The notes under the pieces were generated by a model, which was not told where the DNA came from, did no database searches, and saw only the letters and a list, made by a program, of their open reading frames with translations. The position numbers were made by a program, and so were the translations under genes. Of a DNA stretch of 64,000 bases, positions 7,053-8,306 are shown piece after piece. This DNA comes from Candidatus Altimarinota bacterium. GTDB lineage: Bacteria > Patescibacteriota > Gracilibacteria > CAIRYL01 > GCA-016699755. Each line of letters begins with the position of its first letter. Position 1 is the first letter of the stretch. The stretch covers positions 128,001 to 192,000 of the forward strand of contig OY760935.1 of the NCBI GenBank assembly GCA_963664295.1. Reading direction: 5' to 3'.

Positions 7053-7334
7053 TTATTGATATGTTTTAATAAACTCATTTATTTTATATGATTCTATATT
7101 GGCTTTTTTTGCAACTTTATATTGCTGGTTGTCTTCAGTAAGAAGTATGCCTTTTTCTTGATGAGCTAAACAGACATAAATATAATCAGGTGGCTTTAGG
7201 TAGTCAATTTTGCTTTTTAAGCTATTTATCCAAAAAGCTTCATCTATTGAAAAAAATTTAGGCTCTAGGGCATTTTGTTTGGTTATATTTTGATTTAGGT
7301 TAAATATATTATTTACAAATAATTTCCCCTCCAC
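7053..7334 (-). pseudogene. PIN-domain (VapC-like) nuclease fragment, 5'-truncated
   Basis: DYIYVCLA...ILLTED matches the PIN C-terminal acidic motifs; the N-terminal catalytic Asp strand is absent and the ORF start lies in GC-rich repeat DNA. Confidence 0.6.
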
Positions 7335-7394
7335 TCCGCGCCCTCGTTATTCACTAGGTCGCTCCGCTCTGGGTCGTAATTCTCGCTAAGCACT

Positions 7395-8211
7395 TGGCGG
7401 GTGAGGTGGGGATCGAGTTTTTTGTTTCGGGTTTTGCTTCGCAAAAGCCCTCCACTGCAGACCGCACCCACGGGCTAATTAGATGGGCTCCCAACTCATA
7501 ATTAAAAACAATTTAAATACAACAAATAGCGAACGCTAGTGAGCGAGAGGGGTGAATTGGGCGGGCGTGTACCGCCCAAGAGGGGCGACGCTAGCCCCTT
7601 ATAATTGGCGGGTGAGGTGGGGATCGAGTTTTTTGTTTCGGGTTTTGCTTCGCAAAAGCCCTCCACTGCAGACCGCACCCACGGGCTAATTAGATGGCCG
7701 TGTGCTCGCTCCCAACTCAAAAAATATTTTCCAGCCAGCTTTGCTGACTAAAAAATATTTGGCGGGTGAGGTGGGGATCGAACCCACGGCCAATGGCTTA
7801 AGAGGCCACTGCTCTTAATTTATACCCAGCACAGCCCTAACGGGCTGTCCCGAGCTGGATATAATCCAGCTCTTACCTACGCCTCGCATCTGCTTGGTCG
7901 GTACATGCCCGCCCAAGCAGATGCTCGCGATCGCACCTTACGGTGCTCGGTAGAGCAGTGTCCTTAAGTTATCAGCCGAAGACTTAAATCCATTCACATT
8001 AAAAACCATTCCTGCTTTGCAGGACTGCTTTTTAATGGCGGGTGAGGTGGGGATCGAGTCTTTTGTTTCGGGTTTTGCTTCGCAAAAGCCCTCCACTGCA
8101 GACCGCACCCACGGGCTAATTAGATGGCCGTGTGCTCGCTCCCAACTCAAAAAATATTTTCCAGCCAGCTTTGCTGACTAAAAAATATTTGGCGGGTGAG
8201 GTGGGGATCGA
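7395..8211 (-). repeat. array of five tRNA-Lys 3'-end copies with structured spacers
   Basis: TGGCGGGTGAGGTGGGGATCGA at 7395, 7606, 7760, 8036 and 8190; 7606-7815 nearly identical to 8036-8245. Confidence 0.95.
7760..7815 (-). pseudogene. partial tRNA-Lys (3' 56 nt)
   Basis: identical to 8190-8245 (3' D-stem strand, anticodon arm, T arm, CCA) but lacks the 5' 19 nt. Confidence 0.85.
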
Positions 8212-8264
8212 ACCCACGGCCAATGGCTTAAGAGGCCACTGCTCTACCACTGAGCTACTCACCC
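8190..8264 (-). tRNA. tRNA-Lys (CTT)
   Basis: GGGTGAGTAGCTCAGTGGTAGAGCAGTGGCCTCTTAAGCCATTGGCCGTGGGTTCGATCCCCACCTCACCCGCCA folds as a full cloverleaf with encoded CCA. Confidence 0.97.
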
Positions 8265-8306
8265 AAGAGTAAAAAGACGAATTTTATTTTACCTTAATTC
8301 ATTTTT

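Follow-up and report, generated by a model that had tools for sequence, protein, structure and literature searches.

The closest known kind of sequence to the array described here is the tRNA-linked repeat (TLR) of Escherichia coli. Twenty-two TLRs are reported at ten loci, with 1–5 repeats per locus and each repeat ending in 18–19 bp of the end of the upstream tRNA or rRNA; the loci include tyrT/tyrV with their 178-bp repeats and RttR, the lysT cluster, proK, and rrA/rrB/rrF (PMC8144298). As far as the sections of PMC8144298 used here go, TLRs have been known since 1978 and have no known function. Two further systems resemble the array in part. Islander islands pair an intact tRNA gene with a displaced 3′ fragment in the same orientation, and tandem arrays of them occur (PMC4383910, sections used here). 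Small GIY-YIG proteins of the Ssn kind can cut single-stranded DNA near directional hairpins, and a mobile-element origin has been proposed for them (PMC11893778); tRNA is not mentioned anywhere in the main text of that paper.

We analysed a 64,000-nucleotide stretch of DNA (the window) from a Candidatus Altimarinota bacterium. Its sole tRNA call is a tRNA-Lys(CTT) gene, behind which, on the minus strand, follow four units. The exact 22-mer that forms the 3′ end of this gene is present five times in the 1.215-Mb genome, both strands counted: at 7395, 7606, 7760, 8036, and 8190. An earlier sequence-only reading had listed these five copies with their spacings (211, 154, 276, and 154), and all five are indeed exact matches. 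It had given every copy a length of 22 nt, which holds at three units, but the copy at 7760 is 56 nt long and runs from the D loop on. A module that it had seen reused in inverted orientation (7557–7580 at 7893–7916) is real, with 92 per cent identity over 24 nt. The 210-nt block at 7606–7815 shares 99.5 per cent identity with 8036–8245. Two things were absent from that reading: the likeness to E. coli TLRs and the inverted tRNA copies within the spacers. The features are as follows, in order from the gene.

8190–8264, minus strand: tRNA-Lys(CTT) gene, intact, with CCA encoded (ARAGORN; Rfam RF00005, 75.2 bits).
8152–8189, minus strand: hairpin H1a of unit 1, immediately 3′ of the CCA, with a C(AAA)G triloop, terminator-like.
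8126–8149, minus strand: degenerate inverted copy of about tRNA positions 43–68 in unit 1 (alignment P-value = 0.002 against 1000 shuffles; folds).
8107–8125, minus strand: conserved AT-rich spacer of unit 1 (8116–8125) and direct copy of the 5′ strand of the T stem (8107–8114).
8058–8106, minus strand: folded insert H2 of unit 1 (49 nt), in the T loop after T54, with two purine-rich internal loops and a GCGAAGC tip.
8036–8057, minus strand: direct copy of the tRNA 3′ end, 22 nt, from T loop to CCA.
7999–8035, minus strand: hairpin H1b of unit 2, kin to the hairpin behind tRNA-Lys(TTT).
7945–7997, minus strand: degenerate inverted tRNA copy of unit 2 (core 7949–7978 corresponding to positions 17–48, P-value = 0.003; remainder by eye; fold).
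7816–7944, minus strand: GC-rich hairpin cluster of unit 2, with a compensatory change at 7888/7922 in a related strain.
7760–7815, minus strand: 56-nt direct tRNA copy, from D loop to CCA, with the same start point as the copies behind GIY-YIG genes at relatives' tRNA-Lys.
7606–7759, minus strand: unit 3, a copy of unit 1 with one base different, ending in a 22-nt copy (7606–7627).
7519–7605, minus strand: module B, the start of unit 4, immediately 3′ of the CCA, with 98.9 per cent copies behind tmRNA and tRNA-Ser(GGA).
7395–7518, minus strand: remainder of unit 4, with an inverted copy (10-nt deletion), spacer, T-stem copy, H2 (7417–7465), and 22-nt copy (7395–7416).
7317–7394, minus strand: terminal module C behind the final CCA, with about 94 per cent copies behind tRNA-Gly(TCC) and tRNA-Phe.

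Unit 1 spans 8036–8189 and unit 2 spans 7760–8035; unit sizes are 154–276 bp. The general build of a unit is a hairpin, a degenerate inverted copy of part of its own tRNA, a folded insert, and a direct 3′ copy. The inverted copy is significant in three of the four units of the window and not significant in unit 4 (P-value = 0.95). When the 3′ part of the gene is folded together with unit 1, under both RNA and DNA parameters, the predicted structure joins the inverted copy, across H1, to the T arm of the gene itself; for the inverted copy of unit 2, the predicted partners are the D and anticodon arms of whichever gene or copy precedes it. Between 7335 and 8264 there are no open reading frames (ORFs) of at least 80 aa, the small ORFs of the array (25–72 aa) are not alike between copies, and Rfam returns only tRNA matches on the array. 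A 93-aa ORF (7053–7334, minus strand) starts inside module C. It has zero Pfam or NCBIfam matches, one of its Atlas neighbours, at 0.91, is a cluster of PIN-domain proteins (81 per cent of members carry PF01850), and it is possibly a truncated PIN-domain gene.

The host genome is a single contig of 1,215,430 bases (33.5 per cent GC) with 38 tRNA/tmRNA genes. Fifteen of these genes are followed by copies of their own 3′ end, 27 copies altogether, where a copy is the last 16 nt with at most two substitutions within 900 nt downstream; the upstream control gave 0 of 38. That the spacers of the array might be unique had been raised as a ground for doubt, but they recur behind tRNA-Lys(TTT), tRNA-Ser, tRNA-Gly, tRNA-Phe, and tmRNA. 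The Lys unit is also present at tRNA-Lys(TTT), with 98 per cent identity, and all five matches to module C begin 3 nt behind a CCA. In a second (sister) subtype, the insert follows A58 and is shared, with 95–100 per cent identity, by six unlinked tRNA genes that serve four amino acids; each of the seven full matches to this insert lies behind a tRNA, the tRNA-matching flanks track each gene, and the 3′ copies are about 18–19 nt long. The 3′ copies of the Lys units likewise track their own gene: all five CTT ends read G-CCA and the TTT pair reads A-CCA, and among the matches listed the CTT genes of relatives end in A-CCA in 7 of 7 cases. For the inverted copies, the gene's own tRNA ranked first and untied in 6 of 38 downstream regions versus 1 of 38 upstream regions. 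Perfect 80–85-bp tandem units lie behind tRNA-His, tRNA-Glu, and tRNA-Phe. As a separate observation, tandem copies of the 5′ end of tRNA-Tyr form a gene-less 5′-duplicating array between tRNA-Thr and tRNA-Tyr (C1:591577-591841).

The array shares with TLRs its gene-less units behind a tRNA gene, their number (1–5 per locus in E. coli, four here), the copy of the upstream gene's 3′ end that closes each unit, and their presence at many loci per genome. By our own computation on the E. coli units, the likeness extends to the internal layout of hairpin, inverted T-arm copy, direct T-stem copy, T-loop insert, and 3′ copy, a criterion that was derived in this analysis and is not a published definition. 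The inverted copy is significant in four of the seven E. coli K-12 units tested (tyrV, tyrT, proK, and lysQ) and is not significant in the short lysT/W/Y units. In the same four units, the insert follows A58, as it does in the second subtype of the host genome, and the two sets align on GAGAACC-loop-GGTTCGA and on the 3′ junction. Comparisons between E. coli inserts and second-subtype inserts gave 11 of 18 at P-value ≤ 0.05 (best z of 4.8), versus one of three for the Lys insert. The Ser, Gln, Arg, and Gly units of the host genome have the junction and some sequence in common with E. coli TLRs. The Lys units differ from TLRs in copying 22 nt (three units) or 56 nt (one unit) rather than 18–19, in having their break after T54 or in the D loop where TLRs have it after A58, and in carrying the extra modules B and C.

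Model searches place the Lys units apart as well. The Rfam RtT family (RF00391, cut-off of 45 bits) scores 47–138 bits on the E. coli units, but has no match at E ≤ 10 in the array and none at E ≤ 5 at eight other loci of the host genome; among 151 genomes of the class, it gave no match above the cut-off and three weak ones. A joint model of E. coli and sister-subtype units detects the signature in 7 of the 151 class genomes, and its best score on the Lys units is 8 bits (E = 0.15). Judged by its sequence, the array is of the TLR type, and because it has the TLR layout with neither RtT membership nor a joint-model score, it is a distinct subtype that is not matched to any described family. Our literature search found nothing on tRNA-end repeats in Patescibacteria and nothing linking TLRs to GIY-YIG nucleases; the original TLR papers lie outside its coverage and may already describe the inverted copy.

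Among relatives, a genome of the same family (G004) carries units that have diverged but keep this build, at Met, Ala, Val, Ser, Arg, and tmRNA. Covariation of the spacers, which the sequence-only reading had named as a check, is present in H2, where double changes preserve seven of eight pairs (24 cells, versus 0 of 500 shuffles; 4–9 cells in slid controls), in a set of nine sequences from two genomes (the host and G004) and with a structure derived from the same alignment. Elsewhere the Lys units thin out. A model built on them (R1) matched 11 of the 151 class genomes, strongly only in the host genome and G004. A BLAST search of the array against 40 relatives found little past the tRNA, and module B had only short matches in 300 class genomes, with a plausible one in G004 alone. 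Of 72 tRNA-Lys genes fetched by tRNA similarity (three more were excluded as too close to a contig end), eight have a 3′ copy, four have a downstream GIY-YIG gene, and two have both. Two pattern searches returned chance matches: of the 56 stretches in genome contigs that fit the sister-subtype pattern, just two have a tRNA at the locus, and the two matches to the Lys-unit pattern in metagenome contigs lie in GC-rich, apparently coding DNA. In-frame TGA codons occur in some relatives of the class, which together with the small size of the host genome suggests that the host is a member of Patescibacteria. Four genomes of other families have H2-like inserts upstream of tRNA-Leu(GAG), beside short 5′-end copies (L216, L217, L219, and L222).

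No assembly artefact, which would have undercut the array, is evident in the reads. Unitigs from three runs (X1–X3), which represent one sample, perhaps the source of the assembly, and hence are not independent biology, cover the junctions at 7326–7423, 7457–7548, 7669–7793, and 7786–8069 without any other letters, with no single contig across the whole array. Depth in X1 is about 11–14 in the unique parts, 27 in the two-copy part, and 50 in the four-copy insert; since depth does not equate to copy number and no contig reaches across the array, we take these values as consistent with the assembly and no further. A seawater run from 2017 yielded one contig (depth of 6.1), about 98 per cent identical, that matches 7687–8035 with seven other letters and joins 8190, without unit 1. 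It carries the compensatory change in the hairpin at 7888/7922. In a second seawater contig, also a single one, 7047 is joined directly to 8038.

We give roughly even odds (about 50 per cent) to the reading that the units are non-autonomous mobile elements that act as folded single-stranded DNA. It draws on near-identical modules behind different tRNA genes, on the covariation, and on the strain contig that lacks unit 1, all of which fit the earlier suggestion of tiny non-autonomous elements mobilized in trans. In such a process, pairing of the inverted copy with the preceding tRNA arm would help to place the element; cleavage within the T or D loop, followed by repair by host enzymes, would rebuild the gene and displace its old end; and recombination between the 22–56-nt repeats, together with gene conversion, would let the units expand, contract, and shuffle. 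Because units sit at the same tRNAs in the host genome and in G004, old modules kept by vertical inheritance fit this distribution as well as mobility does.

The least certain step is the identity of the cutter, which may be the nuclease of about 80 residues, of the GIY-YIG type, that accompanies tRNA-end duplications in this lineage. Among the best 90 of 581 matches in the class, 36 GIY-YIG loci have a tRNA or tmRNA on the same strand no more than 400 nt away and 19 have an end duplication, 18 of them of the 5′ end; in five close relatives, 12 of 26 GIY-YIG loci fall within that distance. In the host genome, the tRNA-Pro locus (C1:482635-483430, L001) holds a tandem of 321-bp units with two identical GIY-YIG genes of 81 aa, in which each gene is preceded by the 5′ half of tRNA-Pro with its anticodon arm replaced by a short GC hairpin, and the intact tRNA gene lies downstream. 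The cassettes share with the Lys units both the target gene, tRNA-Lys, and the duplication junction. Two relatives (G011 and G007) have at tRNA-Lys a GIY-YIG gene and, behind it, a 3′ copy that begins at the D-loop point of unit 2, a start that is common to L015, L249, and L281; the other tRNA-Lys of G011 carries what looks like such a cassette with an internal deletion, and a coding cassette at a tRNA-Lys in G104 (L258) has the T-loop junction. The GIY-YIG protein of G007 has no relative among viral contigs.

Other observations argue against a GIY-YIG mover. The cassettes do not share the H2 end structure: the H2 motif, the only shared end feature tested, occurs in 0 of 122 flanks of small GIY-YIG genes, by a matcher for which 9 of 16 host-genome matches fell away from known units. 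Of the 11 joint-model loci in other genomes, eight have a called tRNA directly upstream and none has a GIY-YIG gene in the locus. The 60-contig assembly of G004 holds many units, and its sole GIY-YIG match is UvrC-sized. A small GIY-YIG nuclease is the leading candidate mover on these sequence comparisons, by a link that is circumstantial and unproven.

Described GIY-YIG systems match the tRNA-linked ones in part. The Ssn single-strand nucleases, with their NTS/SRM repeats, likewise combine directional hairpin repeats and a small single-domain GIY-YIG gene (PMC11893778, sections used here); however, the SRM consensus has no match in 7250–8300 and one in the genome, and the tRNA-adjacent proteins have no cd10448 assignment here. 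A 95-aa Ssn-like GIY-YIG gene does lie between hairpin repeats at C1:622557-622841 (L003), and away from tRNAs the genome has about 43 perfect hairpins whose 5-nt loops are related and which may be a variant SRM family. SegB, a free-standing homing endonuclease of the T4 tRNA cluster, is also of the GIY-YIG type and is associated with tRNA genes and with local amplification, but it belongs to double-strand homing in a phage, and gene-less units that mirror tRNAs do not figure in the sections of the two papers used here (PMC2330249; PMC13096335).

A rather unlikely alternative is that the units work as structured RNAs: read-through transcripts would be cut at each CCA into small RNAs that serve as sponges, decoys, or antisense to their own tRNA precursor. 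The sequence-only reading had proposed a polycistronic RNA of this kind, for which we find an analogy in E. coli and nothing in support at this locus. There, rttR is annotated as a small RNA, and the three rRNA-operon TLRs are reported to be transcribed via terminator read-through, to be processed, and to bind Hfq and CsrA in vitro (PMC8144298, sections used here). The strand bias and the presence of units at the same tRNAs in the host genome and G004 would fit RNA too, and the covariation of H2 is equally compatible with DNA and RNA folding and so cannot separate them. The hairpin tips point the other way. In the 38 downstream regions, the tRNA strand contains GC[AG]AAGC 28 times and the opposite strand just once, against an expectation of 2.0, GCAAAGC being the commoner form (17 of 28), and 17 of 29 perfect hairpins near tRNA ends carry a C(AAA)G or C(GAA)G triloop, versus 3 of 172 elsewhere. 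GCGAAGC is an exceptionally stable hairpin in DNA, and its RNA counterparts are much weaker; GCAAAGC is not mentioned in the sections of that paper used here (PMC13037366). The GCGAAAGC tetraloop is absent from all 38 regions. In addition, the H1 hairpin directly behind the CCA is terminator-like, none of the 27 units folds a complete 7-bp acceptor stem, RNase E/G has no match in the host genome or G004, and the models match genomes patchily (11 and 7 of 151). The triloop tips, the terminator-like H1, the missing acceptor stems, and the lack of an RNase E/G match together favour units that act as folded DNA rather than RNA.

Still less probable is an origin without any element family, in which local slippage and fold-back copying at a terminator hairpin generated the units and recombination amplified them. 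It would account for the tRNA 3′ end, H1, and the inverted copy forming one long quasi-palindrome, for the near-identity of the 210-nt block, and for the perfect tandems behind tRNA-His, -Glu, and -Phe. However, the spacer motif and the architecture of H2 are not derived from tRNA, yet they turn up behind different tRNAs and in two genera, six tRNA genes that are not linked hold one and the same insert, and the signature appears again in E. coli and in other families of the class. A fold-back origin is largely refuted, although it probably still explains part of the change in copy number.

Least probable of all, and only a slim prospect, is the reading of the repeats as serial att scars of tyrosine-integrase islands or as minimal satellites decayed to 150–280 bp. 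A tRNA gene with a displaced 3′ fragment is the island signature, and crossover in the T-stem region is common (PMC4383910, sections used here), and that islands occur in the host genome is suggested by a degenerate tRNA-Asp end that lies about 4.1 kb past the gene it matches. This short 3′-end match (C1:74340-74390, behind tRNA-Asp at 70113–70189) is followed by an H1-type hairpin and is a possible island remnant. But Islander islands require an integrase and at least 2 kb, whereas the units here are gene-less, uniformly small at 15 genes, and contain an inverted tRNA copy, which, like a T-loop insert, is not among the island features in those sections (PMC4383910). The absence of an integrase from the window, reported earlier, stands: the genome's only tyrosine recombinase (PF00589, C1:1158017) falls outside it, is Xer-like, and does not adjoin a tRNA. 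Because there is this one Xer-like recombinase and because scars leave the inverted copy and the conserved insert unexplained, the tyrosine-integrase frame is weak; as readings of the array, integrase scars and aminoacylated RNAs are both poorly supported. In G004, tRNA-Pro and tRNA-Asn are each followed, after about 1 kb, by a large serine recombinase gene (C46:4657-5088 and C29:1233-1673; L375 and L377); according to the sections of PMC4383910 used here, no serine integrase is known to target a tRNA gene.

Other candidates fall away directly: REP/RAYT, IS200/IS605, IS110, and retroelements, as the host genome has no match to PF01797, PF02371, PF00078, or PF00239 (Y1 transposase, IS110 recombinase, reverse transcriptase, and resolvase), and a tRNA intron or permuted tRNA, as the gene is whole and the pieces that are interrupted have no 5′ half.

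What the tRNA-Lys locus contributes is a rich example of a TLR, a strain variant, and a junction that matches GIY-YIG cassettes, and no new category. TLR-like units resemble att sites, and island finders will be misled by them. Their anatomy opens direct tests, namely of DNA versus RNA folding, of guide swapping, and of cleavage by small GIY-YIG proteins. With the layout at 15 of 38 genes, in several subtypes of which one resembles the E. coli units, TLRs form a broad family rather than an enterobacterial oddity. We regard as unlikely, but worth stating, the wider conjecture that TLRs from E. coli to these ultra-small bacteria are gene-less members of an undescribed family of mobile DNA that is self-guided and inserted by an 80-residue GIY-YIG nuclease without a recombinase. 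If it were true, the inverted tRNA copy would be a base-pairing guide for T and D loops, and a change of guide would retarget the element.
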